This document shows positions 1 to 17,632 of a stretch of 32,000 nt of DNA, piece by piece. The notes beneath the pieces are model-generated. The model saw only the letters and a program-made list of their open reading frames with translations. It searched no databases and was not told where the DNA came from. Numbering within the stretch: the first letter of the stretch is position 1; each line of letters starts with the position of its first letter. The position numbers were made by a program, and so were the translations under genes. The stretch comes from Candidatus Lokiarchaeum ossiferum (GTDB lineage Archaea; Asgardarchaeota; Lokiarchaeia; Sigyniarchaeales; Promethearchaeaceae), in the NCBI GenBank assembly GCA_025839675.1, contig CP104013.1, positions 5,280,001 through 5,312,000 of the forward strand. The letters are read 5' to 3'.

Positions 1-1
1 C

Positions 2-3000
2 AATTACATATTAGAGAACCATAGTAATTTTGACAGTTCACTTATAAAAATTGATATTTCCAAAATTCATTTAACGTATAGTGTAATAAATGGTAATGAA
101 TCTATTAGAGAAAGCAATTATGAAGAAATCCAAGAATTTCGACTGGATATTGACGATTCGAATGATCTTGATACTTTAGATATCTCATCTTTATTCAGTA
201 TTAATATTAGTTCAACATTACCAAATACTGAAACATTATTTGCTACTGACGAGGATTTAATATGGGGTAATAATCCAATATCATATTTAGCACTAAAAAA
301 CAAATATACTGCACAATATGATATTTTATTGGAAAATAGTGTTGAAATGGTGATATCTGATAATTTAAGAATACTTTCATCGAATAACTTGAAACTATAT
401 TTATATGAAAATTTTGAGCAATATTTACAATATGATAGTACTCTTGGACTATACTTTATTGAGGGAAGAAATGGAATTCTATGGTCCTTACGGAACGAAA
501 GATTTGAAACCTTGAAAATGAATTGTGAAGTTATTGATAGTGAGGTTCAAATTGAATTAGAATCTTGGAATTCAGATGTAGAATTACTTAATAATGGTAA
601 AACTAAAACTGTTTCAATCGCTGATGCTGATGGAGATAATGATCAAGATATAATACTAGATACTTCAACTGTAATCTATCAGCAAAAAAATGAAGCAACT
701 TATGCCATGAAAATATCTACCTTTGATAATGATGATGAATTGATTTGTGATATGAATTTCTTAGCAATTCAAGATAGAGGGGCACCTCATCCAGAATTTT
801 TTGGTCATCTATCAGAAATTGTGGAATTTGGTCGAAATTTTAGCCTAAATGTTGTTGATTATTCCACTGATTTAACTGATATTTATTTATTTTATTCATA
901 TAATGAAACTGGACCATTTATTGAATTAGATCATCAATCTATTACAGAGACCCAGAATTATTTCAGATATGAAATTGATAGTGAAAATTCTTCAGCATAT
1001 TTAAACGAAGGTAAAATATTTTTCAATTTTACCTGTACTGATGATTCAGGTTTAAATGGTTCAACAATATTATCATGTATAATTGATAGATCTCCTATTG
1101 ATCCACTATTTTCTGTAATTGATTTTGAGAAGACAATATTGGATGAAAATGACGATGAGATGAATTGTATATCAGTTCAAAGTAATATTGAAATTGATAT
1201 TCCTTATGAAGCAGAAACTGAAAGTGATTTAGATTATATCAAATTGTTCTTAATTTGTAATGATGAAATCATATGGAAGAATACATACTTCCCCTCTGAT
1301 TTAGTAAGAAGTGAAAATGGATATGAACTTCAATTCAATATATATGAAAATGTCATCAAATACATTATGAACTATAATATTAGCGATACTCTAAGGTTTG
1401 AATGGCAGACTGTAGATAAAGCTTGTAATATTCATGAATTTAAAAAAAATTATACCTTCAATCTTGATTCCGATTTTGAAATTTTCCTATGCAATGATGA
1501 TGGACTCATGCTTAATCAAAATGAAATAGATTTCTATTATTATAATGAATATATTAATGGAAAAGTTGTTGATTCATTTGGACAACCATTACCCAAGGAT
1601 TTTGAGTTTGATTTGTGCTTAGATGGTCTTATTCTCAATAAAACAAAGATTACTAATAATTATGGTAGTTTCAACGCTAAAATTGTTTCTTGTGAGTTGT
1701 ATTCTAATGATTTAAGATATAATCAAGATGTAATAATTAATGGAATTGATGGGAAATTTGAACAAGATAAGTCTATTCAAATGGGTGCGGGACTATCCTC
1801 AAGGTATTCACAAATTGATGCAGTAAATCGCTTATTTTTGGAAAGTGACAAGGGAAATATAGTCTTGAAATATGAAAATATGGATTACTCTGAATATAAT
1901 ATACTTGATGGATTTGAAGGATTTCATTTTGACTTGTTTATTCCGGCTGCAGTAAGCTATTTGTCTGGATCTACATTTAGTGAAATTCAATTGCAATTCT
2001 CCAATGCTTCTTCATCGCAATCAAACGAAAACGATACCATCTTTACATATACTCTCAATTCTCGTGAAATTCTTGATTTGTTAGATAAAGATCCTAATGT
2101 TTATACTTATTATGATATGCATGTTAAACATTTATCGATAGATGTTCCATTCTATGAACTTGATTCATCTAACTTTTATAATGAATTTGATTTATCTAAA
2201 ATTACAGCAGTTAGGATCGTAGGACAAGATAATTTAATCCATCCTGGTATCAATTTTCAAGATGCAACTTTTTATCGGCAAAGTTTAATGTGTGGAGGAC
2301 TATTCCTAATTGATTTAGTCAATAATGCAACTATGTATTATTCAGAAAATGCTCGTGGGTTGGATACTCCAAGAGAATATCAGATTTCTGCTCAAATTCA
2401 AAATTCAAATATTATGGATATATATGCATCATCTGATTTTTCCATTCAAATTGGTCGCATTAATACAGATTTCCTTAATATAGTTGACATTTTTGATGAT
2501 ATTCATTATTCTGATATAATTAGCATTAACGGAATTGGATTTGATAATGATTATGTGATTTTTACAAATGATATGGTAAATAGTTATCTTTGTTTAAAAT
2601 CTCATCCAAATTATACAAGTGATGAATATATTAATATAGGTGTTTCCTTCCCAATTGGAATTAAAACTAAAACTGACTTCATGATTATAGCTCAACCAAA
2701 TCATTATTATAATCTTGACTTGATTTATTCAGGATCTTCATTTTTTGAAAGTTCTGTTATTCCTATTATAGAAGGAGATTATGAAATTCAAAAAAAAAAT
2801 CTTTCTGTTGATTTATTTAGATATGATTTAGATGAACAATTTGAAATATCCATCGATAGAAATCAAACATCAATAATAAGAGGACAATTAATTGATAATG
2901 ATGGAAAGCCTATGTTTGAATTTGATACAACGTCTTCAGAAAATTTAAGTTTTTATATGTATAATGACTATATCTTAGAATTTAAAGAAGATAGAGAAAT

Positions 3001-6000
3001 ATTTTCGAATAATAATGTATTATTAGGTATTTATGATCGCAATTTTGATTATTGGATTGAAAATTCTCAAATAAAGGGAGGCTTTTTCAATTTCACTTTA
3101 AATAATACAAATAATGGAAATATTCCATTAAATCCAGGACGATATATATTTAATATCAATTTTACGGGAAATAATTATTACAATTCAATAAATAGAACAA
3201 TAATTATTGATGTTGAAGCAAGTGATGTACTATTTGAAATGAAAGATCCTGAAACAGATAGATGGGTTGATTTAAATTTTGAATTAGATCCATCAATTAC
3301 TTTTTCGGATTCCAAATCATATACATTTAGGCTAAATGATGCATATACTAATAAACCAATTTCGAATGTGCCAATATGGTTACAAATTAGTTTGGTTCCT
3401 TATGCTTATGATTCTTCTAAACTAGAAAATTTCTTATCTGATTGCTATGGTGATTATTTAATTAGACACGATAATGTCCCTGAAGAGTTAAGAATCAAGA
3501 AATATATTCAAGATAAAACAAGTAAGCCAATCGCATATCCATATTTCGATGAAAAATGTGAAGAAATTAGAACTTTTGGACCTTTGTATTATCAAATGGT
3601 AGAATCCAACAGTGAAGGTATTGTAGTTTTTAATATTGAAGGGGATGTATTTCAAAATGTAATGGACTATTGGTATGAAAAGCTTAAATTCACACCTATC
3701 TCTGTTGAGGATATTAATTTGTATATTAGAGCTTTTTATTCTTCTTCATTTGATGTTGAATTTATGCAAATTCAAGAAACAACCTATTATGAAAAATCAC
3801 TACCTATTGATTTATTTAACAATAATGAATGGATATATGATTATTCTGATGAAGAATATAATTTAATAAGTGATTATTTATCTGGAACGCTATATACTGA
3901 TCCATATCACAAATCGGGTTATGTTGATGGGATTATCACTATTGAAAAAGAAGATACCATGCTTATGAGTGCATATCAGGAAGTGGTAGGTGCAGGAAAT
4001 TTCACTTTATGCACTCAAGTCATTGAAGCAGATGTTGTAAATGGGCAATATATTCCTGAAAAACACGATGATTCTAACTTTATAGAAAAATATGGTTTAT
4101 CAAGTTTGGACAAATTCGCAATAACCATGGAGATTTATGATCACACTAATTTGAATAAATACATTTCCGGACAACATATTGGTTTTGGTAAATATGTGAA
4201 CTATAATAATGATGCTGATGATTTAGGCGTTGTAGAATATAATAATTCAGAAGCTATTTATGGGGTTGAATGGACGAATTTAGTTCCAAATTATTATAAT
4301 ATTCATTATTCAGTTGCTCAACCAGATAATGAACCATATACTGATGAAATATCTTATTCTAAAACATATAAAATGCCAATTAATACAAGTGTTCCTTTGT
4401 TATTGAAATCACAATCAACATTTAGTATTGATAATCCATCTCATGTCTATTCCATTCCACAATTTATAGAATCACTTGAGAACATTGATGTGTCCTATTT
4501 ATCTGAGAATTCTGAATATATTGATTCATTTTACGATGGGAATTATCCAATTATTAAAACTGATATTTCTATTTCTGCAGATTCTTTATCAGGTGAAAAT
4601 TATAATAATACGGATGAAGTTGTGGTAAATATTTTAGCGGATAATGTAGTTTTAGGTCAATATAAAGTAAGCAATTTTAGTGAAGAGTTAATTCATACAA
4701 AGCACTTTGAATTACCATTAAAAATACTTGAAGGTAGAATCCCAGATATTTCATTTAGGGTAGATTTTGTACCCTTACCGGAAAAAAATATTGATTGGGA
4801 TGAAGAAAGAGAAGAATTCGCATCCAATGATGCTGCTGATATTAATTGGGTTGATTATAGAGATTCCTTAATTCACAATGCATGGGTAGATTATCAAATT
4901 AGAACAAATTATGACATTAAAATTGATAATTTTGTTATCTCAGACTCTAATATTCTTGATAATGCTCAAAATTGGAATATCTATGATGATGTTAATGATG
5001 AATGGATTTATTCAAATGACACAACCAAACAATCTGATTCAATAGTACGAATTTCAGAAATGGGCAAAGATTCATCAACAATAAGTTCAACAAATGAATT
5101 TACGAAAGATTTAATCTCAACAATTAATAAAGTTAATATACTTCAATATCGAATTAATCAAGACTGTGCTGATTGGTCATCTGATATTATGCAAATATCT
5201 GATTCAATGACATTTAATGTATCCGAAATCTTCAAAGATGTATTTTATGTTGAGAGAATTAATAGAAATTGTTCAATTTCCTATGCAGATCCCGTTAGTG
5301 AAGAAAATGTTGAGGATGTTTATCAAACATTTAATGGATTTATGCTTTCAGATTTAAGTAATTGTGAAAATTCAATTAGAACTGCAAATTTTTATAATTC
5401 TTCAGAACTTGATTTTGCTTCTCAAAGTGCTATTTATGCTGGATTAAATCAAGGAGATGTTGTTAAAATTTCTATAAAAGATATTTATATGCCTTATCAA
5501 TCACAAATAAATTGGTCTTTAATCGCACCAAAATTTGATTCAGTTGATATTTCAAATATAGATATTCAATTAGATTTCAAAATTAAGGGAACGACGGAGG
5601 AGTATTTCTCAAATGGTGAAATTTATTACCATTATTTGAACGCTGCTTCATATAATGAAGATATTACAAAATATTTTGTAGATATGTCTCAAGTAATTCC
5701 TGAAGATTTTTGGAGTAAATTTGTAGATATTGAAATCATAATTCATGCCATTACTACAGATGATTTAGTTCAGTTATATTTACTTGATTCTCTTATTACA
5801 GGTAATGAAAATATAATAAAAATGAGTAATGTTTATCCTACTGCATTACGGGCAAGAATGTTTAGCACTAATTTAATGTATTTTTATACCAGTAATGCTT
5901 TTGATATTGGTGCCACAGTAACAGAGAATATTAACATAAATGATCAAAATGATATTCTCTATCGTTTAGAAGAAGATGATGATCCATATACAAATAATCT

Positions 6001-9000
6001 TATTGATATTCTTAATGTTTGGGATTGGAATGTATATGTTAATCCTCCTGAAGATGATATAAGAAGATATATTGATCTCTATAAATGGCATTATAATGAG
6101 GAAACAAAAACTTATGAAGAACTTAATGAGTTGACAGATTACAATCAAAATCTGCAGACATATTTTGATTTTGCTGATGACGATAATGATGGTTTATCCA
6201 TGGTTAAAATGAAATTTAAGGAAGCCTATATGGAAGATTTAACAGAACCGAAGAGATTCTCCGGATTATTAAGACTCTATAACAATGACTATGATAATCC
6301 TGAAGATCCTGAAAATTCAGGTTCTATTTTATCAGAAATGACCTCTCGTAAAATCACTGTTTTATTAAATCCAGAAACTTGGGAACAACAAGCTGAGATG
6401 ATTACACTTAAAACTAGTAGTACTTCAACATCAGACACTTATCGAACTGATTTAGGCAATAAGAATATAGACCTTGAAATAAAAAATGAATTTGAAAAGC
6501 AATCTTCTTTAACATATTTCTTAGAAGCTGGTATTAATGATGTTAATATTACAGATTGGTCAGAAGAAGTTAAGATCAAAAATGCTCCAACCACTACTGC
6601 GGGAAATCTGAAATATGACCTTGAAAATTATCAATCATATTATGATATTATTACTGGATTACCTGCTTCTGCTGAATTGGACTCGTCATATCTTTTCATT
6701 GAGTTGGAAAAACAATCTAATTTAATTTATGAATTCGATATGAATATTGATGGAATTTATGGTATAAATAGTCATTTAGATAAAGGAGAATATGAATTTT
6801 TAGACCTTCCTTTCTATATTGATAATTGCACATACATTGAAAATATTCAATTCTCTCTTTATGATTCCTCAACACTTAGATATACAGAATTAACAGAGAT
6901 ATCTGATCTCACTGATTATTATTCACGAAATAAAGTAATAGATATATCAGGCATTGATTTTGATACGATTAATTTTAAAATTCAATTTAAAGATATTGTA
7001 ACAGCATACGGTAAAAATCCGAATATTACTATCGGAGGATTAGGATTATTTGATGAGAAATCTGTAGGATATTTAAATATTAATTTAAGAGAAACCGAAT
7101 CTAGCCAGAGTGATACTTATACTACTTATTCACATCCCTTAACTCCTACAATATTTAATCCAATAGTTGCTCCTAATGCTAAGAAAATGGATTTAATATT
7201 AAATGATGAAATGGATGCTATTTTTATAAAAGAATTGTCCATTAAAACTCCTGAAAGGGCTAATGCGGAGTTAAATATTTTTGAATTAGCAATAAACGAT
7301 AAATTATCGTCCGATATTGAAGAATCTGTGATGGATAATTACAAAATATACTATTCCTATAAATTTGATGAATATCAAAATGAAATGATGAAAGAAATAT
7401 ATAGTGTTTATTCTGAAGATTTTGGGATGCCAGATTGGATATCTACAAACGGTCTAAAGGTATCGGAGTTAATGAAATGGAGTAATCAATATTCTATTGA
7501 TACAAATGGTGATGGAGATTTTGATATAACCATACAGATTTTTGACGGCGAAGGTAAAGGATCTGATATCTACGAAACTTTGCCGGATGGAACAGAAATC
7601 ACTTATTTCAATAATGGTATTCAGGATACTATGTTATATGATATTGGTAATGATGGTATATGGAATATTCTAGAAAAGAGTGATACTATTATCTCATCTT
7701 TCAATGTGACTGATCCAGCAGACAATGAAAATGGTTATTATTATGTTTCTGAATATAAATTTGAATATGAAGAAATTTGGGAAGATTTAACAGGAGATGG
7801 GATATTTAATATCAAAACTCAGGAATATAGGACTTCTGATTTAAAATCTCCAATACCTAATTATCGAGAATTTTCTACAATAAATTCCAATGGTGATGTT
7901 GAGAGTTATTTTGAGGTACATATTTCAGATGATGATTGGTCCGATTATACTTATGGGAAACTAACAGAGTTCGATTTTAATGGTGATGGGGTCTTTGAAT
8001 ATTCTGAAAAAAGAGAAGATCTATTTCCAAATACTAAAACGGTATTAGAATCCAATGATGAAAATCTTATATATGAAACTTACACCAAAACTTACATAGA
8101 TTCTTCGGGAAATAAAACTATTGAGGAAGGTATTGAATTTCTTCAGAATTTAACATTTATTTGTTTAGGTCCAGACCCTGTAGATGAATGGAATGGGGGT
8201 GAAGGAACCTACGAAAGAGTATTAGCAGGAGAATTTGTAATTCTTGAAGATATTCCAGTTAACTTTGATCCTAGAAGCTTTAGTGATATTCCAAATAGTA
8301 TTCGACTAGATGAACATGGAACCATTGCTTGGTATGATTCTGATAATAATGGGCATTATGAAATAGCTTTTATTTTTACTCAAGAATCATGGCAAGAACA
8401 AATTGCTGTAGCTGCATATCAAAGTAGTACTGGAAAATATGTTGTTCACACACAATATGGTGAATTTGAAAATTCTAACGATACAATTACAGCATTTCAT
8501 TGGTTATCTGATTATTATGACTTTACTGATATAATGGATGTGGGTTGGGATGCTGCTTATGATGATCATAATAGAAAAATGGGATCTGCAGATTTTTGGA
8601 TAACTCAAATAATGGATACATTGTTATCATGCTTAACTATGTTTATTGTTGGTGCATTAGCACCCGCAACTTTCGGTGCTTCTTTATTACTAACAACTGT
8701 AATAAATTCACTCTTTCAAAAATTACTTAGACCTCTTTTAGTCGATTTAATGGAAGAATTTGGGGTTCTAACTAGAGATCGAAGTCATATTTTAGGGGGT
8801 AAGGACGAATCTGGCTTGAAACATGATCCTATTGAATTTCTTGAAGAAGTAGGGCAAAGTTTTGTAGATGATTGGGCAATTTTTGGAAAATCAGAAGGCA
8901 TTCCATATTATACTGAGCGAGCTTACTTTACAGATGTTGATCCTTTCACAATTGATCAAAATAAAGAGCAATTTAGTTCAGATCCAAATGTAGATCCCAT

Positions 9001-11533
9001 GACTCAACATGAAAATAAGAGTGTTTGGGTTGAATATAAAGTTCCTCAACTATGGTGTCCTACTGGACGAGGGGATTATAATATTCTCTCAACTCTTGAT
9101 ATTAAAAAACATATAGACAATTCAGGGATATTTTCAGAAGATGTCGATCCTGAACTAGCATATTTGGGAATTCGAAAAGGTGTTCCTAATAGTTTTGGAT
9201 ATGCCTTAAAATGGTATCTAGAACAAATACATGCTGGTGTTGAATTTGATGATCCCGCTGAAGTTGTCATAAAAAGGAAAATGGATGAAGATAGTACTCG
9301 ACATCGAAGAATTATGCACCAATTTTTCTATCGAGATGCTCCTTGGGACACTGAAGAATTATGGGATTCCGAAATAGGAGAAGAAAATGGTTTTACAACA
9401 AAAAATTATATTAATGGCACTGAAAACACCTTAATCGAGAATTCTTTAGCAGATAATAGGAAATTGATTTATAAAACAAATGAATTTGGGCAACCTACCC
9501 TCACTGCAGCACCTAATACTACTTTGAATTACTCTGATTCAATAATTTACGAATTAGATTATTTACAGATGTGTATGATTTCAAAATATCGAACAGCATA
9601 TGAAGCAGGAGAAAAATACAATGCAGCAATTTTCTTTAGCACTTTAACAATCCAAATAGTTCAGACAGGATTAGCAATACTTGCAGGATATGCAGGAGGG
9701 GCCTTGCACAATAAAATAAAATGGCAAAATACATTGAGTAAAGCTTTAGGAGAAGAAGTAAAATTACAATTTTCAGAAGTATTCAATACTATTTGGAAAG
9801 CAGAACGTGGAATTAGAGGATTCATAGGAGAAATATTTGAAGAAATGGTACTTGAAGAAGCAGTTTCTTCAACTTTTATTTATCTTGGCTTTTCTGAAGG
9901 ATTATCAAACTTATTAGGAGAATCCATTTCATTTTCAACAATAAGCTCAGGTTTTAGCAAATTAACTTCTTTAGGAAAGAGTCAAACATCTGCTACTCCA
10001 AAGAAAACTAATTCGGAAATTGTAAAAAGTATCCAAACTGTAAATCAATTTGTTTTTGGATCTCAAACATCTAGTCCTAGCCAAGCAGGATCTAATTCCG
10101 AATTAATTCGAAGTAAGTTAGACTCCAAGAAATCATCCAAAACCGCTAAATATATGAGTATGAGTAATTTCATGATTCTTCATCAAGCAGCTCATACTCT
10201 AGATATGACTTCTATCACAAAATTGCAAGGTTATATCGACAACAACGCAGTTAATGATAAGATGGGAGGTTCATTGAATTTAGCAAGAAATTTAAAACTA
10301 TTATCATCAGTTCTTAGAATTCCTGCACTAGAGTATACTGGAATAAAGAGTAAAAAAGCTTTAGCAAAATTTGAGATTACTATGAAAAACGAAATTTTCC
10401 AAGAAATTCTTGAAGAGGGTGGTGGAGATCCAAGTAAAATTATCGCGAATAAGCTTTTGTGGGAAATGGGTAAACTTGGGCTTGGAAAAGATGGAAAATA
10501 TCGATATCAAAAGATGCAAAGTATTCAATATGTTGGAAATCAAAAAATGCTAACTGAAATTGTTCCAATTATCGAAAATGGGGAAATTTCTTCCATTATG
10601 GTTCAATTACAAGTTGATAATGATATAGTTGGAACTTTAACTCTCGATGAATATTTAGCATTAGAAACAACTCCAAATAGCTTATCTGAGCTCATTTTGC
10701 AATCAGATGAATTTAATATGGTTGATCCAGAAAGTATAGGTTCAACTCAATCAGGTGAATTCATAAAATCACTTCCAAAACAAGCAGCAAAATTATTGGA
10801 ATATCTAAATTTTCCCATCGAAGACTTAATTAGGGGTGATGGAAAAGCTATAAAGAAGTTTGTAAATTCTTTAGGTCTTGGAAAATCCGCTAGAGAATTT
10901 GTTGAATCTGTTTATCCTGCAATATTAACAAAATATAATAATAACCCTGCCGTTTTTATAAAACTATTTGAGACTATGCTATTTTCCAAGAGGACATTTC
11001 TTGAAATCGGTGGTATGACTATCAAAGATCGATTTATGAATGGACAAGATTCAACCATAATCAATAAAATGAAAGAATTATGTAAAGCTTTAGGGTGGGA
11101 ATTTGATAGTAGTAGAAACGTTGCGTTTCTTGAATTTGATTTAAAGCATTTAGATCAAGAAAATAACATTGAAGGATATATTGCATCTAAAAGTCAACCT
11201 GAGTCTATGAATTGGCAACCGACATTTGATAATGAGATAGCAGACATATTTGAAGCAATTGATAATAATGATGGATTAGGAATAAGATATACTGATACAG
11301 AAAGAAAAATGTTAATGGATCTTTTCTTTATTTTAAATATTGTAAATCAAAATAAATATATTGAAGGATCATCTGTAATATTATATACTCGTAATCCTCC
11401 TTGTCGATCATGTCAAAAAATAATAAAAAGAGTGGGAGAAATTCTCAAAACACAAGGTATACATCTTACCGTAATGTGGGGAAGCGATATTCTTATACCT
11501 TTCAATTGGCAACAGGTGAATTTAGATGATTGA
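2..11533 (+). CDS. Giant membrane-anchored surface protein, 5'-truncated by the window (3843 aa visible), with a C-terminal deaminase-like toxin-type domain (polymorphic-toxin-like architecture)
   Basis: Frame 2 has no stop from nt 2 to the TGA at 11531-11533. I translated 2-331 by hand (NYILENHSNFDSS...AQYDILLENS). The ORF-track start at 329 is only a TTG inside the open frame, so the true 5' end lies outside the window. The protein is Asn/Asp-rich. It has prealbumin/CarboxypepD_reg-like beta-sandwich signatures (GKVVDSFGQPLPKDFEF 1559-1609; IRGQLIDNDGKPMFEF 2876-2923), DxNGDG loops, two hydrophobic segments, a Ser/Thr-rich linker (~9930-10170) and a C-terminal PCxxC domain. Confidence 0.9.
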   Translation, partial: NYILENHSNFDSSLIKIDISKIHLTYSVINGNESIRESNYEEIQEFRLDIDDSNDLDTLDISSLFSINISSTLPNTETLFATDEDLIWGNNPISYLALKNKYTAQYDILLENSVEMVISDNLRILSSNNLKLYLYENFEQYLQYDSTLGLYFIEGRNGILWSLRNERFETLKMNCEVIDSEVQIELESWNSDVELLNNGKTKTVSIADADGDNDQDIILDTSTVIYQQKNEATYAMKISTFDNDDELICDMNFLAIQDRGAPHPEFFGHLSEIVEFGRNFSLNVVDYSTDLTDIYLFYSYNETGPFIELDHQSITETQNYFRYEIDSENSSAYLNEGKIFFNFTCTDDSGLNGSTILSCIIDRSPIDPLFSVIDFEKTILDENDDEMNCISVQSNIEIDIPYEAETESDLDYIKLFLICNDEIIWKNTYFPSDLVRSENGYELQFNIYENVIKYIMNYNISDTLRFEWQTVDKACNIHEFKKNYTFNLDSDFEIFLCNDDGLMLNQNEIDFYYYNEYINGKVVDSFGQPLPKDFEFDLCLDGLILNKTKITNNYGSFNAKIVSCELYSNDLRYNQDVIINGIDGKFEQDKSIQMGAGLSSRYSQIDAVNRLFLESDKGNIVLKYENMDYSEYNILDGFEGFHFDLFIPAAVSYLSGSTFSEIQLQFSNASSSQSNENDTIFTYTLNSREILDLLDKDPNVYTYYDMHVKHLSIDVPFYELDSSNFYNEFDLSKITAVRIVGQDNLIHPGINFQDATFYRQSLMCGGLFLIDLVNNATMYYSENARGLDTPREYQISAQIQNSNIMDIYASSDFSIQIGRINTDFLNIVDIFDDIHYSDIISINGIGFDNDYVIFTNDMVNSYLCLKSHPNYTSDEYINIGVSFPIGIKTKTDFMIIAQPNHYYNLDLIYSGSSFFESSVIPIIEGDYEIQKKNLSVDLFRYDLDEQFEISIDRNQTSIIRGQLIDNDGKPMFEFDTTSSENLSFYMYNDYILEFKEDREIFSNNNVLLGIYDRNFDYWIENSQIKGGFFNFTLNNTNNGNIPLNPGRYIFNINFTGNNYYNSINRTIIIDVEASDVLFEMKDPETDRWVDLNFELDPSITFSDSKSYTFRLNDAYTNKPISNVPIWLQISLVPYAYDSSKLENFLSDCYGDYLIRHDNVPEELRIKKYIQDKTSKPIAYPYFDEKCEEIRTFGPLYYQMVESNSEGIVVFNIEGDVFQNVMDYWYEKLKFTPISVEDINLYIRAFYSSSFDVEFMQIQETTYYEKSLPIDLFNNNEWIYDYSDEEYNLISDYLSGTLYTDPYHKSGYVDGIITIEKEDTMLMSAYQEVVGAGNFTLCTQVIEADVVNGQYIPEKHDDSNFIEKYGLSSLDKFAITMEIYDHTNLNKYISGQHIGFGKYVNYNNDADDLGVVEYNNSEAIYGVEWTNLVPNYYNIHYSVAQPDNEPYTDEISYSKTYKMPINTSVPLLLKSQSTFSIDNPSHVYSIPQFIESLENIDVSYLSENSEYIDSFYDGNYPIIKTDISISADSLSGENYNNTDEVVVNILADNVVLGQYKVSNFSEELIHTKHFELPLKILEGRIPDISFRVDFVPLPEKNIDWDEEREEFASNDAADINWVDYRDSLIHNAWVDYQIRTNYDIKIDNFVISDSNILDNAQNWNIYDDVNDEWIYSNDTTKQSDSIVRISEMGKDSSTISSTNEFTKDLISTINKVNILQYRINQDCADWSSDIMQISDSMTFNVSEIFKDVFYVERINRNCSISYADPVSEENVEDVYQTFNGFMLSDLSNCENSIRTANFYNSSELDFASQSAIYAGLNQGDVVKISIKDIYMPYQSQINWSLIAPKFDSVDISNIDIQLDFKIKGTTEEYFSNGEIYYHYLNAASYNEDITKYFVDMSQVIPEDFWSKFVDIEIIIHAITTDDLVQLYLLDSLITGNENIIKMSNVYPTALRARMFSTNLMYFYTSNAFDIGATVTENININDQNDILYRLEEDDDPYTNNLIDILNVWDWNVYVNPPEDDIRRYIDLYKWHYNEETKTYEELNELTDYNQNLQTYFDFADDDNDGLSMVKMKFKEAYMEDLTEPKRFSGLLRLYNNDYDNPEDPENSGSILSEMTSRKITVLLNPETWEQQAEMITLKTSSTSTSDTYRTDLGNKNIDLEIKNEFEKQSSLTYFLEAGINDVNITDWSEEVKIKNAPTTTAGNLKYDLENYQSYYDIITGLPASAELDSSYLFIELEKQSNLIYEFDMNIDGIYGINSHLDKGEYEFLDLPFYIDNCTYIENIQFSLYDSSTLRYTELTEISDLTDYYSRNKVIDISGIDFDTINFKIQFKDIVTAYGKNPNITIGGLGLFDEKSVGYLNINLRETESSQSDTYTTYSHPLTPTIFNPIVAPNAKKMDLILNDEMDAIFIKELSIKTPERANAELNIFELAINDKLSSDIEESVMDNYKIYYSYKFDEYQNEMMKEIYSVYSEDFGMPDWISTNGLKVSELMKWSNQYSIDTNGDGDFDITIQIFDGEGKGSDIYETLPDGTEITYFNNGIQDTMLYDIGNDGIWNILEKSDTIISSFNVTDPADNENGYYYVSEYKFEYEEIWEDLTGDGIFNIKTQEYRTSDLKSPIPNYREFSTINSNGDVESYFEVHISDDDWSDYTYGKLTEFDFNGDGVFEYSEKREDLFPNTKTVLESNDENLIYETYTKTYIDSSGNKTIEEGIEFLQNLTFICLGPDPVDEWNGGEGTYERVLAGEFVILEDIPVNFDPRSFSDIPNSIRLDEHGTIAWYDSDNNGHYEIAFIFTQESWQEQIAVAAYQSSTGKYVVHTQYGEFENSNDTITAFHWLSDYYDFTDIMDVGWDAAYDDHNRKMGSADFWITQIMDTLLSCLTMFIVGALAPATFGASLLLTTVINSLFQKLLRPLLVDLMEEFGVLTRDRSHILGGKDESGLKHDPIEFLEEVGQSFVDDWAIFGKSEGIPYYTERAYFTDVDPFTIDQNKEQFSSDPNVDPMTQHENKSVWVEYKVPQLWCPTGRGDYNILSTLDIKKHIDNSGIFSEDVDPELAYLGIRKGVPNSFGYALKWYLEQIHAGVEFDDPAEVVIKRKMDEDSTRHRRIMHQFFYRDAPWDTEELWDSEIGEENGFTTKNYINGTENTLIENSLADNRKLIYKTNEFGQPTLTAAPNTTLNYSDSIIYELDYLQMCMISKYRTAYEAGEKYNAAIFFSTLTIQIVQTGLAILAGYAGGALHNKIKWQNTLSKALGEEVKLQFSEVFNTIWKAERGIRGFIGEIFEEMVLEEAVSSTFIYLGFSEGLSNLLGESISFSTISSGFSKLTSLGKSQTSATPKKTNSEIVKSIQTVNQFVFGSQTSSPSQAGSNSELIRSKLDSKKSSKTAKYMSMSNFMILHQAAHTLDMTSITKLQGYIDNNAVNDKMGGSLNLARNLKLLSSVLRIPALEYTGIKSKKALAKFEITMKNEIFQEILEEGGGDPSKIIANKLLWEMGKLGLGKDGKYRYQKMQSIQYVGNQKMLTEIVPIIENGEISSIMVQLQVDNDIVGTLTLDEYLALETTPNSLSELILQSDEFNMVDPESIGSTQSGEFIKSLPKQAAKLLEYLNFPIEDLIRGDGKAIKKFVNSLGLGKSAREFVESVYPAILTKYNNNPAVFIKLFETMLFSKRTFLEIGGMTIKDRFMNGQDSTIINKMKELCKALGWEFDSSRNVAFLEFDLKHLDQENNIEGYIASKSQPESMNWQPTFDNEIADIFEAIDNNDGLGIRYTDTERKMLMDLFFILNIVNQNKYIEGSSVILYTRNPPCRSCQKIIKRVGEILKTQGIHLTVMWGSDILIPFNWQQVNLDD
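7499..8370 (+). repeat. FG-GAP/VCBS-like calcium-loop repeat region within the giant protein (possible beta-propeller)
   Basis: Six D-x-[ND]-G-D-G-type loops recur at roughly 30-120 aa spacing: IDTNGDGDFDI (7499), YDIGNDGIWNI (~7639), DLTGDGIFNI (~7783), INSNGDVESY (~7881), FDFNGDGVFEY (~7972), YDSDNNGHYEIA (~8336). The region lies just upstream of the first membrane segment. Confidence 0.5.
8621..8716 (+). other. Hydrophobic membrane segment 1 of the giant protein (one long helix or a helical hairpin)
   Basis: LLSCLTMFIVGALAPATFGASLLLTTVINSLF is 32 uncharged, mostly hydrophobic residues, flanked by polar sequence. Confidence 0.6.
9623..9706 (+). other. Hydrophobic membrane segment 2 of the giant protein
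   Basis: AAIFFSTLTIQIVQTGLAILAGYAGGAL, followed by the basic HNKIKW. Confidence 0.55.
11117..11530 (+). other. C-terminal cytidine-deaminase-fold-like (toxin-type) domain with a non-canonical first motif
   Basis: LGIRY-TDTE-RKMLMDLFFIL (D-T-E codons 11294-11302), then 33 residues, then VILYTRNP-PCRSC-QKIIKRVGE (PCRSC 11399-11413), then IHLTVMWG. This reproduces the strand-[H/C]xE-helix ... strand-PCxxC-helix ... strand layout and spacing of deaminase-superfamily domains. Asp sits where His/Cys is expected. Confidence 0.45.
11514..11519 (+). promoter_or_regulatory. Shine-Dalgarno-like AGGTGA for the downstream immunity-like gene
   Basis: AGGTGA lies 6 nt before the ATG at 11526, inside the 3' end of the giant ORF. 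ATG 11526 and TGA 11531-11533 overlap as ATGATTGA, consistent with translational coupling. Confidence 0.45.
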
Positions 11534-13088
11534 TATATTTACAAATTTTTTAAATGAGCAATATAAGAATGGTAGATTACAACAAAATGATAATATTGGT
11601 TGTAATAAGGAACAAATAAAAGAAATTGAAGAAAAATATCAGATTAAATTCCCTAAAATTTACATTTCTTTTTTGGAAAATTTTGGACTTAAATCTGGAC
11701 AGATATTTCCTTCAAAACATTTTTTTTCTTATCCATATTTGTTAAAAATGAAAAAATTAGTTAAAGAGCATTTAGATTACTTACCAGAATTTTATCTATC
11801 TGAAAATTGTTTCATTTTTTATCTAATAGAAGACTTTGATACAAATGGAGCATTTTTGTTTTTTAAACTTATTGAGGGTATTGATGATCCTCCAATTTAT
11901 ATTTATAGTGAAGATTTTAATTTTCCAATTTTATTTTTTGAATCATTTTCTAAATGGCTTTTTTCAAATCATTATCTACCATTTAGAGATAAAATTTTTG
12001 TGATTTCTAATGATATCAATGAAGATGAATTTGATATAATATCAAAAATAAAAAATGAAGTTGGTTCTGCAGATATTAGAATAAAAACAAAAAATAAGAA
12101 AATTTGTGAATTATTTATCAATAATTCATCAATTAGTGAAATCCCAGAAGAAATTGGAAGAATTTCTGAATTGGAGCATTTAGATTTATCCAATAATTTT
12201 ATAGCAAATATACCTAATCATCTTGAAAAATTGCACAAATTAAAAAAGTTGAATCTATTTAATAATAAAATTCTTTCTATCTCTGATGAATTTAAAGATC
12301 TACAATCATTGGAAGTTCTTTCTTTATCAAAAAATGAAATTGGCATTTTCCCAAATGAAATATCAGAGCTAAAAAAATTGAGAGTATTAGCACTATCTAA
12401 TAATTATATTTCAAATATTCCAGATTCAATTAACAATTTAAAAAGGTTAGAGGAAATTTATTTAAATTCTTGCGATATTGATAAAATTTCACCACTATTG
12501 TTTAAATTGTCAAATTTAAGAGTTATTGAATTATATGATAACAATATTAATGGTATATCCGAAAATACAATAAAAAATGAAAATTTAAAAATTTTAGATT
12601 TTTCAAAAAATAATTTTTCTACTATACCTTCATTTATTTATTGTTTTAATAAATTGAATGAGTTAAAGTTTGATGATAATAACTTAACGACTATTACTGA
12701 ATCTATCAACCAACTGCTCAATCTAAGATTCTTATCATTGAAGAATAATAAAATTAATCAATTGTCAGACAATTTTGGTGATTTATCAAATTTAGAAGAA
12801 ATATATTTTGATAATAATATATTGCAAAACATTCCTTTTTCTATTTGCAATTTGCAGAATTTAAAGATTTTAAGTCTTAGAGGTAATAAGATTGAAGAAT
12901 TACCTGAAGAAATGCAGAATTTGACAAATCTAGAATATTTAGATATTTCTAAGAATCTACTAAAAATTTTACCAGAATGGATATTAAAATATAAACATAT
13001 AAAAAATATTGATTTTTATTTAAATCCTTTAAAAAATTCAAGTATCTTAAAAAAAATAGAACTGCAAAAAAAAAAACGAGATCATTAA
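11526..13088 (+). CDS. SUKH (SMI1/KNR4)-type immunity-like domain fused to a 14-repeat LRR solenoid
   Basis: The N-terminal ~160 aa carry the SMI1/KNR4 pattern: CNKEQIKEIEEKYQIKFPKIYISFLENFG ... FIFYLIEDFDTNGAFLFFKL ... DDPPIYIY. The C-terminal ~310 aa are 23-residue LxxLxLxxNxIxxIPxxIxxLxx repeats. The gene overlaps the upstream toxin-like ORF by 8 nt. Confidence 0.8.
   Translation: MIDIFTNFLNEQYKNGRLQQNDNIGCNKEQIKEIEEKYQIKFPKIYISFLENFGLKSGQIFPSKHFFSYPYLLKMKKLVKEHLDYLPEFYLSENCFIFYLIEDFDTNGAFLFFKLIEGIDDPPIYIYSEDFNFPILFFESFSKWLFSNHYLPFRDKIFVISNDINEDEFDIISKIKNEVGSADIRIKTKNKKICELFINNSSISEIPEEIGRISELEHLDLSNNFIANIPNHLEKLHKLKKLNLFNNKILSISDEFKDLQSLEVLSLSKNEIGIFPNEISELKKLRVLALSNNYISNIPDSINNLKRLEEIYLNSCDIDKISPLLFKLSNLRVIELYDNNINGISENTIKNENLKILDFSKNNFSTIPSFIYCFNKLNELKFDDNNLTTITESINQLLNLRFLSLKNNKINQLSDNFGDLSNLEEIYFDNNILQNIPFSICNLQNLKILSLRGNKIEELPEEMQNLTNLEYLDISKNLLKILPEWILKYKHIKNIDFYLNPLKNSSILKKIELQKKKRDH
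12108..13040 (+). repeat. 14 tandem 23-aa leucine-rich repeats (coding)
   Basis: Read directly from the translation: ELFINNSSISEIPEEIGRISELEH / LDLSNNFIANIPNHLEKLHKLKK / LNLFNNKILSISDEFKDLQSLEV / ... / LDISKNLLKILPEWILKYKHIKN / IDFYLNPL. Confidence 0.85.
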
Positions 13089-14933
13089 GTGAGTGAATTT
13101 TAAAAACTTAAAATTTACCGTTTTTTCGTTTTTTTCTTAATTCTGCTTCCCACTTCCGACGTTTATCCCAAAATGCTTTTTGTCGTGGATTTAAAGCAAT
13201 CTCTTGAAGTTGACAAAAACCTGAATCTCGTGCTAGTTTAATCCACATAGAGTTTGTTTTAAACTCCCTTCCAGTTGAAAATGCACTTAATTTCGTCAAT
13301 AAGTCAGTTCTACCTAATTTATATGCTGTAATTGCTCGCATTAAATCCAGTATATATGTTAAGGTACGATGAAGGTGGGCCATATTCAATCCACGAGTAT
13401 TTAATCGTTTTTGATTATAAAATGTAGGGTTTGCAGATTGACCTGCTTCAACTAAAGGTCGTTGAGCATACATTAATAATATGTCTTGCTCTGTCCATCC
13501 AGGTGGAAAATAATCGGAATTAAACCAAAATCCTTTTTTTAATTCCCGAGTTGGATGAGTTTTAAGGTGTTTTGGTGCACGAAGCAAAGGAAAAATGCCC
13601 CGATCTTGATAAAATTCCAGACTTTTCTTACAATACGTACCTGTATCACCCATCACCATCTTCCACTCTCCAATTTTAAGATTATTAAAAGCGGTAAAGG
13701 TTTTGCGGGATGCTGGTTTATCGTTCATATTGCCTGGAAAAGTCTCAAAATGTATTGGAAGTGCCCGTTTCCAGCTCCCACAATACGCATAAAGTGTCCA
13801 ATGAACAAATCCAACACCAAGCTTCTTCCCTGAATGACGATAATATCCAGCATCACTATCATTATACTTTGTTGTTTTTGAATTTTTATTGTTGTTACAG
13901 TTCGTTCTGACAAATTGACCATCAAAAATCATGATTCTAGGAATGATTATCCTAAGATCAATAAGCTTCACGAACTAAGTTATGAAAATAATCCATGACT
14001 CGGGAAAGAGGGATACGATTCATAATATAACTGATATCATCCGCGGAGGGAAAGTAGTAAGAATCATGTAAAATCCCCTTCAAAGGATTATCACCAATAA
14101 AATATGACATTTTTTCTAAACCTGAATAATCTTTGAATCCAAGCTGGCGACGAAGTAGTTCAAATGCGATAATATCATGAAGGAACATTCCTTTGAAATG
14201 AACTCCCTGTATCTCCAATTCATCTTGAATTTTATCAAAGTAACTAAGATCATTCATTTCAAAGATATGATTGAAATATCCTGAAAATTTTGGTAGCGTG
14301 TGGAGCATATCCCACTCTGACTGCGGAAGTATGCCTTTTGCATAATCATCATAAGTTGTTTGCCCAAGATTGCGAAATCGCATGAAGTACTTCCGTTTGG
14401 GAAGAATATGTGCAATATTTCCGTATATATAATGCTCTAATCGTGTTTGGGATTTAGAAACTATCAATGAAGGGGCTTTCCGGGCGTGACGCTTGAATGG
14501 AAACCATTTAAATTTTTTATATACATAGCGATATGTCTTTGGAATCCACATTTCAAGTATTTGAGTTGATTTCAGACCGATATAATCATGTAACTGCATT
14601 TGATATATTGAAGGCCGTCGTCGATATTTGAATATTAGAATAGCTGATGCACCCCAGATATTGAATATATTAGTGTAAGGAAAACAAGAATAAAATTGTT
14701 TTGGTTTTTATATTATCTAAAATCTTGAAATTGGGCATGATTTTATGCTCATCATCAGATCATTTAAGATCCACTAATTTGGCCTAGCAAACGGGAAATT
14801 TTGTGAATGCTAAAAAACGTGTCCACTTTTGCTCGACAAAATTAAATGTGGTATAAAATGGGGGATTCAAAGCCAATGGGTGATAAATTACTAAAAAAAG
14901 TGAAAATTACAAAAAGTACGATTCACTCAAGTA
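13089..14933 (-). mobile_element. IS4/IS5-family insertion sequence; ends not confidently defined
   Basis: It contains the split transposase. The only terminal-repeat candidate I found is short: GAGTGAAT 13091-13098 versus ATTCACTC 14921-14928, each abutted by AAGT (13087-13090 and 14929-14932). In AT-rich DNA this could be chance. Confidence 0.35.
13108..14599 (-). pseudogene. IS4/IS5-type DDE transposase split into two overlapping ORFs by a frameshift
   Basis: ORF 14599-13958 (213 aa) has an InsH/DUF772-like N-terminal region (FELLRRQLGFKDYSGLEKMSYFIGDNPLKGILHDSYYFPSADDISYIMNRI). ORF 13971-13108 (287 aa) is DDE_Tnp_1-like, with candidate triad IMIFDGQF / VMGDTGTY / YAQRPLVEAGQ. By codon phase (14599 = 1 mod 3, 13971 = 0 mod 3), joining them needs a +1 or -2 shift. 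Confidence 0.75.
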
Positions 14934-15954
14934 AATTTTCCTTTTTTTTTAACAAATCAAATGATTTCTTTCGTGACATTTTTTTTTTACTCTCTCTATT
15001 TTCAATAATTTTGACTTATTTTGATCTAAAATAACGACAATTTCTCTATTTGTTGCTTTATTTCTCAATTAGAGCCTTTAAGTCAAGTTGTTTAGAAAAA
15101 TTGACCTTCTTCCATCATTCCAAATTCTAACTCTACGCTATAGGATGCCAATCCCATTATCTTTAATGTATCAACTCAAATCACATAATATTTATATAAT
15201 CCACTGACAAAATCTATTTTATGGTGTCTAATTAAACTTTATTCCCCCGAATCTGATTGGAGAACAATAATTTTTTTTTGTGCTCTGATTAGTTCAGTAC
15301 ATTGAAAAAAAGTTTGTCATTCTGCGGTGCGACGTGAAAGCTATATAATTGAATGCAAATACAATTTGAAATTTGCCCTACTGATGACGTAGTGAAGCTA
15401 TCCAAACATGCGTACTTGGTAACAAGTGGGTGTGAAGCTCTGGAGACAATGTACTTCTTTTTGTGAACACACAGAAAAAGAAGGCTAGCTTGGGTTCCTA
15501 TGGTAAACGAAAGTGAACTGGTATTTAAACCTCGTAAGACAAACGATGGCGAAATGTGTTGATACGCCAAGCTAAAATAGCACTATTGTTGGTAAAGTAT
15601 ACTCGCGGGTTATACTTTTGTCATCCCTTTAGCAATCGGGGAAGAGCCAGTACCTAAGGGAGCTGTTAAAAGTCAATTATCTGGAACACGGTAAGTCTAA
15701 TGATCCCCATTGACATGGTAGCGTAAGGTCAAAATGACCGCCACTCATCGAGACTGGCTATGCTATACAGAATGGTAACCTAAAGGTAACTGAAGGTGAT
15801 GGATCAGTAGATAGAGGATGTCGGAGAAAGCTAAAGCATGACTGTAATCGTTGTGATAAATGCAAATGCATTAACGTGAAAACGTGCCCACTTCCGACTG
15901 GTAAACAATGTAGAAGAGATTCGAGAAAACTCAAAGAAAAGTAGTGATTACACA

Positions 15955-17427
15955 TTGAAGAAAATCAATGAATCAAACAAAGAACGGCATGAAGTTCAAG
16001 TCTGTTGGTCCAAAATTGATTGGATCTCAGTCTGCTCATACGTCGAGCGATTACAGGATCGAATCTACATAGCAACTGAAAAGAAAGAATTTCGAACGGT
16101 AAAAAATCTTCAAAAATTAGCAATTCGTTCGCATTATGTAAAATTGTATGCAATACGAAATGTTACACAACTTAATTCTGGTCGGAAAACACCTGGAATT
16201 GACGGAATCACATGTCTTAATAATAAAGAAAGAGAATCACTCTACGAGATAGTTAAAACTTTCTCTTACAGTTCAATTAAGTCGTATCATCCAAAACCAG
16301 TCAAGAGAATTGAAATTCCCAAGGCAAATGGAAAGCTACGACCTATTGGTATTCCTACTGTGTTTGACAGAGTAATCCAAATGCTTGTCAAAATCGCTTT
16401 AGAACCTGAATTTGAACAAAAATTTCACCAAAACTCTTTCGGATTTCGTCCTGGACGATGTTGTCAAGATGCTGTTGAGGTTATTAACTACACAATTAGA
16501 TATGGTAAAGGTGAATATATCTTAAATGCAGATATAACTGGTTGTTTTGACAACATTGCTCATTCAACCCTTTTATCCGAGTTGCACGTCTTCAAACCTC
16601 TTGTTAAGAAATGGTTAAAGGCAGGAGTTTTGATTAATAATCGCAAATACGGAACAGAGAAAGGCACACCCCAAGGAGGAATTATTTCTCCTCTTCTTAC
16701 TAATATTGCTCTCAATCGTTTGGATTATCTATTTAATCGCAAAATTTCTTATCGTGGCAAAGAATATCAGACTACTCTTGTTAGATACGCTGATGACATA
16801 GTCATTTTAAGCACTAGTAAAAATTTTCTTGTTAGGATCAAAGATGTACTTGCGAAAACACTTTTGAGACAGGGGTTAACTTTAAATACCAATAAAACTG
16901 TCTTGATTCATAAATCGGAAGGTTTCAAATTCCTTGGATTCCATTTTATTCAACATCCCTATAAAACTCTTTGGATACAACCTGAAAAAGCATCCGTTCA
17001 ACGTATGCTACACAAACTCAAAGTTCTTTTAGATTCGCACAAGCAGATAAAAAGTGACGCTCTAATTTATGCGTTGAACAAGCGAATCTTGGGTTGGGCA
17101 CGCTATTATCAATACTGTAGGATAAATGGTATTTTTAATCGGATGGATTCAATTGTATTTAGATGGATCTGGAAGTGGTGTACCAGAAGGCATCCTCGAA
17201 AACCAAGAAAATGGTTAAGGCAAAGGTATTTTAAAGCAGTCAATTCTTTGAACTGGGTTTTCTCAGGTGATATATGGAGTCTTTCTTATTTTGTAGATGT
17301 TAAGCGCAAGAAATATCGATGGCGAGTAGGAAAGGAGAGTTATTTAAATCCTCGAGAAAGAAAGTTGTGGAAACAAAATAATATATGCAATTCTATCTAT
17401 AATAATGCAAATTCAGTCTTTTCTTAA
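15955..17427 (+). CDS. Group II intron reverse transcriptase/maturase (no recognisable HNH endonuclease domain)
   Basis: RT motifs: RKTPGIDGI (RT0), IEIPKANGKLRPIGIPTVFDRVIQ (RT1/2), FGFRPGRCCQDA (RT3), ADITGCFDNIAH (RT4), GTPQGGIISPLLTNIALN and LVRYADDIVIL (RT5, YADD), KFLGFHF (RT7), and maturase X motif RILGWARYYQY. The start is a TTG. The frame is open from 15880 with no in-frame ATG nearby, so the N-terminus is uncertain. Confidence 0.9.
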   Translation: MKKINESNKERHEVQVCWSKIDWISVCSYVERLQDRIYIATEKKEFRTVKNLQKLAIRSHYVKLYAIRNVTQLNSGRKTPGIDGITCLNNKERESLYEIVKTFSYSSIKSYHPKPVKRIEIPKANGKLRPIGIPTVFDRVIQMLVKIALEPEFEQKFHQNSFGFRPGRCCQDAVEVINYTIRYGKGEYILNADITGCFDNIAHSTLLSELHVFKPLVKKWLKAGVLINNRKYGTEKGTPQGGIISPLLTNIALNRLDYLFNRKISYRGKEYQTTLVRYADDIVILSTSKNFLVRIKDVLAKTLLRQGLTLNTNKTVLIHKSEGFKFLGFHFIQHPYKTLWIQPEKASVQRMLHKLKVLLDSHKQIKSDALIYALNKRILGWARYYQYCRINGIFNRMDSIVFRWIWKWCTRRHPRKPRKWLRQRYFKAVNSLNWVFSGDIWSLSYFVDVKRKKYRWRVGKESYLNPRERKLWKQNNICNSIYNNANSVFS

Positions 17428-17557
17428 ATTCTTCTGTCATAGAAAAAGTAATTGGAAGTCGCAAAAGAGCTGTTGATACCGCATTTAGGGATATTCAACC
17501 AGATTACTGTGACCTGAACGAATTTGAGTTGTGGTGACGCATCAGTTCTATTTGCTT

Positions 17558-17591: not shown

Positions 17592-17594
17592 TGA

Positions 17595-17629: not shown

Positions 17630-17632
17630 GAC

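Follow-up and report, generated by a model that had tools for sequence, protein, structure and literature searches.

A giant membrane protein with an exchangeable deaminase-like tail in Candidatus Lokiarchaeum ossiferum: a probable polymorphic toxin-immunity system of Asgard archaea

The window analysed in this work, 32,000 nucleotides (nt) of the 6.04-Mb genome of Candidatus Lokiarchaeum ossiferum B-35 (contig CP104013.1, positions 5,280,001 to 5,312,000), opens inside a giant gene, NEF87_004486, annotated as encoding a 'hypothetical protein', the end of which overlaps a second open reading frame (ORF), termed here ORF2. These two genes probably make up a polymorphic toxin-immunity system whose architecture is new and specific to Asgard archaea. 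A first-pass annotation, made from the DNA letters alone, had proposed such a module in a host that it took to be archaeal. The host is indeed an Asgard archaeon, as is shown by neighbouring proteins that match B-35 records exactly, and this identity supports the interpretation, together with a match of the giant protein's tail to the Pfam family PF14424, a SUKH domain in ORF2, the swapping of C-terminal cassettes between related loci and the presence of an orphan cassette at one of them. Asgard archaea are the closest prokaryotic relatives of eukaryotes and their conflict systems are almost unknown; in its most far-reaching form, set out below, the proposal would, if true, mean that deaminase toxins and immunity proteins built on repeat scaffolds are found in the archaeal lineage nearest to eukaryotes. 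The locus belongs to one of the very few Asgard archaea in culture, and is therefore open to experimental test.

Conserved bodies and unrelated tails

A search with the last 1,000 residues of the giant protein returned a single homologue, P0001, which is 36% identical to it up to a short motif, FNMVDP in the window and FTMIDP in P0001, and unrelated to it beyond that point. The profile of the membrane module that precedes this junction, when run against 1.84 billion cluster representatives, matched 33 proteins of up to 6,327 amino acids (aa) and also retrieved the complete L. ossiferum protein, P0002. The named members of the family all come from Asgard archaea, in metagenome-assembled genomes of Promethearchaeota and Sigynarchaeota, and one of the family contigs also encodes UPF0179 and the beta subunit of an archaeal proteasome. 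When alignments of the family were used as queries, no relatives turned up in two scans of contigs from GTDB genomes or in one of contigs from JGI metagenomes. No Pfam domain was found in any of the nine members scanned. The conserved part of these proteins ends in the pattern hydrophobic-x-h-h-Asp-Pro, the Asp-Pro pair being invariant in all 19 of the sequences that reach the junction, and what follows falls into at least ten classes of tails, mostly unrelated to one another, some short (186-267 aa) and others long (590-1,250 aa).

The way in which the tails change is best seen in P0001 and in P0051, a homologue of 7,451 aa, which are 90.9% identical over 1,130 aa, up to about 35 residues past the junction, and entirely unrelated over their last ~190 residues. 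With bodies as close as this, fast divergence cannot therefore explain the tails. The gene that comes next differs as well: after P0001 (locus L002) it encodes leucine-rich repeats (LRRs) with an extra C-terminal domain, after P0051 (L012) WD40 repeats with an extra domain. The comparison of orthologous loci proposed in the first-pass annotation has thus revealed the swapping of C-terminal cassettes together with matched downstream genes that it had in mind, in the pair P0001/P0051 as well as between the window and P0001. A further locus, L003, contains an orphan cassette. Its genes come in the order module gene, LRR gene, orphan cassette and small unrelated ORF, and the cassette opens with a 300-nt repeat of the pre-junction region, 91% identical to the main gene, before continuing through a junction of its own, YELVDP, into a tail different from that of the main gene. 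The guanine plus cytosine (GC) content drops from ~60% to ~28% at both junctions. Both this discontinuity and the 300-nt homology arm demonstrate that cassettes are exchanged.

Several features of the family call for separate mention. Its short members (907-2,296 aa; for example L003 5944-8724 and L005 8001-14891) lack a signal peptide and begin just before or inside the conserved module, the genes upstream of them being divergently oriented; they may be truncated copies, displaced cassettes or short forms that function independently. By eye, the long tails of P0010, P0013, P0003, P0006, P0007 and P0025 contain stretches that recall PD-(D/E)xK nucleases (such as CIPDALIKVK...FLMESLDE), and the tails of P0051 and of the L003 orphan resemble Cys/His peptidase-type domains, appearances that Pfam and PDB searches did not back; sequence searches of the PDB with four alternative tails gave no match. 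Directly upstream of the gene for the 7,451-aa homologue, a 1,668-aa protein with a faint PPC-domain match, encoded on the opposite strand (L012 2636-7642, minus strand), could be another surface protein belonging to this island.

The deaminase-like cassette of the window

In the L. ossiferum protein, the last ~110 aa of the tail form a divergent deaminase-like core of the DxE type. When the last 200 aa were compared with Pfam, the family PF14424 (Toxin-deaminase, BURPS668_1122) was matched with E=3e-6 and 27.9 bits (23.9 bits for the whole 3,843-aa translation of the window), in an alignment, IRYTDTERKM...PPCRSCQKIIKRV, which covers both catalytic motifs and profile positions 85-131 of 146. 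From DTE to PCRSC the spacing is 30 residues, and the protein ends 39 residues past the second Cys. In the BURPS668_1122 clade, DxE stands in place of HxE/CxE, the signatures are 'RxxDxExK in Hel-2' and 'CxxCxS in Hel-3', C-terminal truncation is frequent, and the immunity proteins are Imm2, Imm3 and SUKH (Iyer et al., 2011, PMC3239186, with the signatures in its Table 1). The fit of RYTDTERK to the first signature is exact; PCRSCQK has the CxxC of the second, with Lys where Ser is expected.

The tail has no detectable homologue, and its structure was for that reason predicted by AlphaFold2 (AF2) without an alignment. The resulting model has a mean predicted local distance difference test score (pLDDT) of 48.9, and has in the neighbourhood of PCRSC a strand (piece residues 148-153) and a helix (159-174); in its best part (pLDDT 55-75) the elements run helix(DTE)-strand-PC-helix-strand, in the same order as in the deaminase core (a2-b3-a3-b4). 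To judge from its sequence, the tail is very probably homologous to the BURPS668_1122 deaminases. It shares with them the DxE motif, RxxDxExK in the predicted helix 2, PCxxC at the predicted helix 3, truncation soon after the predicted strand 4, the presence of SUKH among the immunity proteins and a place at the C-terminal end of a giant, putatively secreted protein. It differs in that the helix-2 to helix-3 half of the profile is all that aligns and that CxxCxS reads CRSCQK; furthermore, the clade has been described from bacteria and Perkinsus, whereas the present tail is archaeal and has no close sequence relative. The deaminase-like tail of the first-pass annotation thus stands as regards the DTE and PCRSC layout and the E-value, and the profile search that it proposed did match a toxin-deaminase family across both catalytic motifs, but at 27.9 bits against a Pfam gathering cut-off of 29.6. 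Because of this shortfall the tail is labelled here 'BURPS668_1122-like' and is not counted as a curated member of PF14424.

ORF2 and the downstream partners

The start of ORF2 overlaps the giant ORF by 8 nt, ATGATTGA, at 11526-11533, and the AGGTGA site that precedes it by 6 nt lies where the first-pass annotation had placed it; by this arrangement, ORF2 is to be seen as translationally coupled to the giant gene. Also upheld is the claim that ORF2 begins with a SUKH domain: the SUKH/SMI1_KNR4 family (PF09346) is matched by aa 25-145 (nt 11598-11960), the score being 44.1 bits if residues 1-165 are scanned on their own and 39.8 bits if all of ORF2 is scanned, where the cut-off is 25.4, and 123 of the 125 profile positions (1-123) are aligned. 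The SUKH_5 and SUKH_6 profiles match as well. About 13 LRRs follow at aa ~190-500 (nt ~12093-13025). No signal peptide was found in ORF2, and its SUKH domain had no close homologue in the word-indexed database and no NCBIfam match. No stretch of the window is richer in AT than ORF2, whose GC content is 21%.

An LRR protein follows the giant gene in five of the six loci with usable context (the window, L002, L003, L005 and L006), as two tandem paralogues in L005, and a WD40 protein takes its place in the sixth; none of these partners has a signal peptide. Imm-LRR is a recognised, if minor, class of immunity proteins, but such repeat-based proteins do not find wide use among different toxins; most immunity superfamilies are missing from archaea, where classical polymorphic toxins are rare (Zhang et al., 2012, PMC3482391). 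Like other SUKH and Imm-LRR proteins (PMC3113570, PMC3482391), the SUKH domain is encoded here directly after the putative toxin gene. It differs from them in being fused to LRRs in a single protein, and the locus differs in that LRRs (WD40 repeats once) come after nearly every member of the family, across unrelated classes of tails. This can be read in two ways. Either the binding of each tail is achieved by evolution of the LRR surface itself, or the LRR/WD40 part binds the constant, presumably cytoplasmic stalk of the giant protein, and the small domain appended to it, SUKH in the present case, is the tail-specific inhibitor. The presence of LRRs in five of six loci whatever the class of the tail means that they may, therefore, bind the constant body and not the tail.

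At this point it must be asked whether the tail is a toxin at all. The giant protein could be a structural adhesin or envelope protein with a fast-evolving, non-toxic C-terminus, in which the deaminase motifs would be due to chance or be a relic, ORF2 being an LRR scaffold with a SUKH fold. A Pfam match under its cut-off, an Asp where the zinc ligand is usually His or Cys, a failed structure prediction of the tail, sequence searches that returned no homologue for either the tail or the SUKH domain, and the other tails, in which no toxin domain is recognisable, would all be natural in such a protein. We regard this nevertheless as quite improbable: E=3e-6 is significant, DxE is precisely what defines the clade that was matched, the motif agrees at 8 of 8 specified positions, a body that stays 91% identical while its tail becomes unrelated is not explicable by fast divergence, and the GC discontinuity and the homology arm of L003 show cassette exchange.

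The ectodomain, the membrane module and the junction

The frame that opens at nt 2 runs for 3,843 codons to a TGA at 11531-11533, its 5' end lying beyond the window. The complete product of NEF87_004486 (UYP48201.1, WP_457917599.1) has 7,585 aa with the RefSeq start and 7,593 aa with the GenBank start, so that the '>3800 aa' of the first-pass annotation is right for the open frame but falls short of the true length by a factor of two, the window holding the 3' half of the gene. A public Logan contig, identical to the window over 1526-13119 and ending at 13119, carries a gene call of 7,593 aa. The N-terminus of P0002, MKRKIMAFFILNLFTVSTAFDILASGC, looks by eye like a signal peptide with a lipobox-like Cys, and the same layout is visible in P0051 (...LAFVLLFIMAISPSQWIFGSAC), again as judged by eye. 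The long ectodomain predicted to follow is rich in Asn, Asp, Ser, Ile and Tyr. It had been described at first pass as a repeat-rich presentation region, a description that has to be abandoned: the full 7,585-aa protein, compared with itself by BLASTP, showed no internal repeat at E<=1e-3, and nt 1-13100 showed no tandem repeat in Tandem Repeats Finder. No Pfam domain matches the part of the ectodomain that lies in the window, and the record of the whole protein lists none; nor was any known trafficking domain found in it. Close to the membrane, a portion conserved in the family is 43% identical to P0001, and a motif scan finds in it, at window aa 2500, 2658 and 2779, motifs of the DxDxDG type, which resemble calcium sites.

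Two hydrophobic segments, aa 2865-2908 and aa 3209-3227, bear out the earlier claim that this is a membrane protein. For the membrane module, the AF2 model built from a nine-sequence alignment has a pLDDT of 61 and a predicted template modelling score (pTM) of 0.62, and is useful for helix topology only. It resolves the first segment into a hairpin of two helices, at model residues 40-63 and 71-96, separated by a 7-residue Pro/Gly loop, with local pLDDT values of 58-79; the first of these helices contains an invariant Asp (D49 in alignment A6). The conserved loop domain that comes next shows the motifs RDRSH, RHRRxMHxFFxR and NYSDPxxYExDYxxMC and gave no Pfam, PDB-sequence or Foldseek match to a known fold. 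A role of this domain as a peptidase was considered and dropped, because the candidate Cys and His residues vary across a 14-sequence alignment. The whole module, likewise, matches nothing in the PDB, neither as a profile in sequence searches nor as an AF2 model in Foldseek. The third helix is followed by a flank rich in Lys, by Glu residues that do not vary in the family (ExxxE, EEMVxE) and then by a stalk that remains 36% identical to P0001 up to the junction. Three membrane passes after an exported N-terminus would leave the last ~615 residues in the cytoplasm, a topology suggested by the moderate-confidence model and by the positive-inside rule.

If this predicted topology is taken at face value, the main rival to a weapon against neighbours is a device that acts in cis. 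The ectodomain would sense a non-kin cell, a virus or a surface, as in self/non-self recognition, and no toxin would be exported; the signal would pass through the three-helix module to an effector acting in the producer itself, by suicide, growth arrest or signalling, and restrained by its LRR, WD40 or SUKH partners. The hairpin, the third helix and the Lys-rich flank, which predict an internal C-terminus, would suit such a sensor, as would partners that all lack a signal peptide and are built on scaffolds typical of signalling and immune hubs, the failure of Pfam, PDB sequence and Foldseek searches to find a secretion or delivery domain, and the defence-like SIR2-TPR proteins encoded nearby. 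A hypervariable surface-protein module of Thermococcales has been read along these lines (PMC8416519). We hold this explanation to be unlikely all the same, as orphan cassettes with homology arms, AT-rich tips and tails that co-vary with their partners are the signature of toxin-immunity pairs exchanged for use against neighbours, SUKH is overwhelmingly an immunity domain of exported toxins, and the topology itself is a prediction from a model with a pLDDT of 61.

A possible mode of action

A polymorphic toxin-immunity system made of NEF87_004486 and ORF2 might work as follows. The N-terminal, lipobox-like signal would export the ectodomain of ~6,600 non-repetitive residues, and the hairpin and third helix would keep the end of the protein, toxin included, on the cytoplasmic face, where the SUKH-LRR protein would bind and neutralise the toxin as it is made. 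New tails would be installed by homologous recombination through the conserved sequence that precedes the junction, and the Asp-Pro bond at the junction would be the site of release. Contact mediated by the ectodomain would then be followed by entry of the cassette into the cytoplasm of the neighbour; membrane fusion, protrusions or vesicles are topologically consistent with this, and we mention them as a speculation. In the recipient, the cassette would deaminate the bases of nucleic acids unless the cognate immunity protein was present. Taken in its full extent, namely a weapon proper to Asgard archaea in which a non-repetitive surface filament of ~7,600 residues, a three-helix module, a cytoplasmic exchangeable cassette released at Asp-Pro and neutralisation by eukaryote-like LRR or WD40 scaffolds, fused here to SUKH, come together with delivery by a route novel for prokaryotes, such as fusing protrusions or vesicles, this scenario is tentative, and we put it forward as a possibility more doubtful than the toxin-immunity system as such.

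A number of observations weigh against a toxin-immunity system and have to be considered together. Pfam searches of the window translation and of nine members of the family revealed no secretion, repeat or processing domain known from polymorphic toxins. The tail is predicted to lie inside the producer, no delivery machinery is evident, and LRRs follow the giant gene regardless of the class of the tail. The PF14424 score remains 1.7 bits below the gathering cut-off; the AF2 model of the tail is unreliable and has no significant Foldseek match to the PDB; and the tail finds no match in NCBIfam, in a sequence search of the PDB or in an index of 5.8 billion sequences. No other tail matches a known toxin, in Pfam searches of the nine members and of alternative tails. 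Finally, the junction in the window shows no sharp GC step, and a search for an orphan cassette like that of L003 found none in the window itself.

Relation to known systems

The best-known comparable systems, CdiA-CT/CdiI and Rhs-CT/RhsI (Zhang et al., 2012, PMC3482391), share with the present family a very large protein, exported or, here, predicted to be so, in which a constant body and a short junction are followed by unrelated tails, an immunity gene that comes next and changes with the tail (a role that is proposed here from gene position and domain content), orphan cassettes with homology to the body, and the combination of a GC-rich body with AT-rich tips, seen here in L003. There are also differences. 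No TPS, FHA, VENN, YD/RHS, PAAR, LXG/WXG or HINT domain, nor any other known trafficking or processing domain, was found in the window translation or in the nine family members scanned, and neither the 7,593-aa nor the 7,451-aa full-length protein has a CdiA or Rhs Pfam domain on record. The present host, an Asgard archaeon, has a single membrane; its giant protein combines a body free of repeats with a three-helix membrane module, placed before a tail that is predicted to lie in the cytoplasm. At the junction the pattern is hydrophobic-x-h-h-Asp-Pro, with VDP not followed by GL, unlike the DPxGL aspartyl-protease motif. By its domain content, the giant protein is an analogue of the CdiA/CdiB and Rhs/YD toxins and not a member of either group. 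Teneurins, too, are giant surface proteins anchored in the membrane, and they derive from polymorphic toxins; the FrpC protein of Neisseria cleaves itself at an Asp-Pro bond. These are analogies only: no sequence or structural relationship was detected with either, and cleavage at Asp-Pro in the Asgard proteins is conjectural.

Loci of archaea in which a toxin domain at the C-terminus is followed by an immunity gene have reportedly been described by Makarova and colleagues (mBio, 2019). As far as the part of the account available to us goes, the archaeal polymorphic toxins described so far rest on domains of bacterial type, colicin D, PD-DExK and a DUF4157 protease signature (PMC6393860), and such toxins are regarded as acquired from bacteria (Zhang et al., 2012, PMC3482391). 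The present locus shares with them a C-terminal domain, here a putative toxin, and a downstream gene, here of presumed immunity function, and differs in having a body and a junction that are Asgard-specific and match no known domain. Full-text literature searches, whose coverage did not extend to the main archaeal survey (Makarova et al., 2019), yielded no paper on NEF87_004486, on toxins of L. ossiferum or on the giant family. What is known already is the concept of polymorphic toxins, deaminases of the BURPS668_1122 type and immunity by SUKH proteins. New, as far as these searches reach, are the module that unites presentation, membrane passage and junction, its confinement to Asgard archaea (to judge by the named members), the repeat-scaffold partners and the predicted topology.

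There are practical sides to this. The constant module, made of the body, the three-helix unit and the Asp-Pro junction, could be used to harvest toxin and immunity domains from Asgard genomes, and a highly divergent DxE deaminase-like domain is of practical interest, given that DddA and other bacterial toxin deaminases have become base editors. Storage of a toxin in the cytoplasm, as predicted, would present a mechanistic puzzle as to its transfer from cell to cell, in an organism known for its membrane protrusions. In broader terms, LRR and WD40 scaffolds as partners of putative toxins bear on the idea that the deaminases and the repeat-based immune proteins of eukaryotes have their origin in conflict systems of prokaryotes (Iyer et al., 2011, PMC3239186).

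Surroundings of the locus

The features of the window are collected in Table 1. Just downstream of ORF2, where orphan cassettes would be expected, lies a cluster of mobile elements formed by the IS4-like transposase gene, the group II intron and the IS110-family element. Further on, two genes for proteins with SIR2_2 and TPR domains may constitute a second conflict locus beside the first, SIR2-repeat architectures being typical of defence or conflict systems that deplete NAD. No chemotaxis gene other than that of the CheR-type methyltransferase is visible in the window.

Table 1. Coordinates of the features of the 32,000-nt window
Feature	Position	Strand	Basis or remark
C-terminal 2,864 residues of the predicted ectodomain (~6,600 residues)	2..8593	+	Translation; full-length P0002
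Membrane-proximal ectodomain, conserved in the family (window aa ~2480-2860)	7439..8593	+	Profile matches in 33 proteins
Hydrophobic stretch of 44 residues (aa 2865-2908), predicted two-helix transmembrane hairpin	8594..8725	+	Hydropathy, AF2
Conserved alpha/beta loop domain, ~300 residues, between hairpin and third membrane helix	8726..9625	+	Alignments A4-A6
Predicted third transmembrane helix (aa 3209-3227)	9626..9682	+	Hydropathy, alignments, AF2
Helical 'stalk' (aa 3228-3570), with Ser/Thr/Gln-rich linker and small beta-rich domain before the junction	9683..10711	+	Conservation
Junction motif FNMVDP (aa 3571-3576)	10712..10729	+	Similarity between homologues stops here
Variable C-terminal cassette, 267 aa plus stop	10730..11533	+	Follows junction; unrelated to P0001 and P0051 tails
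RYTDTERK, RxxDxExK helix-2 signature (Asp7507 and Glu7509, full-length numbering)	11285..11308	+	Motif match
PCRSC, PCxxC zinc-binding motif at start of predicted helix 3	11399..11413	+	Motif, AF2
AGGTGA, Shine-Dalgarno-like site 6 nt before the ORF2 ATG	11514..11519	+	Sequence
ORF2, 520 aa, SUKH plus LRR, presumed immunity or partner protein	11526..13088	+	ORF, Pfam
Two ORFs of a split DDE (IS4-like) transposase, 20 nt beyond the end of ORF2	13108..14599	-	Bounds the locus
Group II intron, complete	15378-17632	+	Rfam D1-D4 15378-15556, domain V/VI 17556-17632
Intron reverse-transcriptase/maturase ORF	15955-17427	+	RVT_N, RVT_1, GIIM
IS110-family transposase ('IS110 family RNA-guided transposase' in RefSeq)	17963-19504	+	Annotation
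SIR2_2 plus TPR proteins, 1,760 and 878 aa	19726-25008 and 25930-28566	+	Domains
Class I methyltransferase, between the SIR2_2 plus TPR genes	25057-25722	-	Domain
CheR-type methyltransferase with ~140-aa N-terminal extension	28732-29982	+	Domain
Two tandem small GTPases of ~300 aa, 44% identical, with ~125-aa C-terminal extension	30009-31901	-	Gtr1/RagA and Arf profiles

In its composition the toxin locus (2-13088) is distinct, with a GC content at third codon positions (GC3) of 0.14-0.19 as compared to 0.24-0.31 in the neighbouring genes (13100-32000). A second L. ossiferum genome (6,274,825 bp) has the GTPases, the CheR-type methyltransferase, the triose-phosphate isomerase and a thioredoxin in common with B-35, but it does not appear in the 90% clusters to which the giant protein, the intron reverse transcriptase (whose cluster holds the B-35 genome only) and the IS110 transposase belong. 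It may be that the locus is not the same in both genomes, or that the gene has gone unannotated in the second. Could the locus then be part of a mobile element or of a virus, the giant protein being, for instance, a receptor-binding or tail-fibre-like protein? The AT-richness of the whole locus, the insertion-sequence elements and intron on its flank and its apparent absence from the protein clusters of the second genome might suggest as much. The window and the related loci, however, contain no hallmark gene of viruses or plasmids, the homologues sit among housekeeping genes (proteasome, UPF0179, dehydrogenases), and the mobile elements lie downstream as independent insertions, all of which makes this origin highly improbable.

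The tandem GTPases at the right end of the window are eukaryote-like, as is typical of Asgard archaea, and are kept in both L. ossiferum genomes. About 7 kb past this end, the triose-phosphate isomerase gene (L008 3358-4158) encodes a protein of bacterial type, which scores 218-267 bits with bacterial models and 45 bits with the archaeal subfamily. This at first cast doubt on an archaeal host, yet the protein is exactly that of L. ossiferum.

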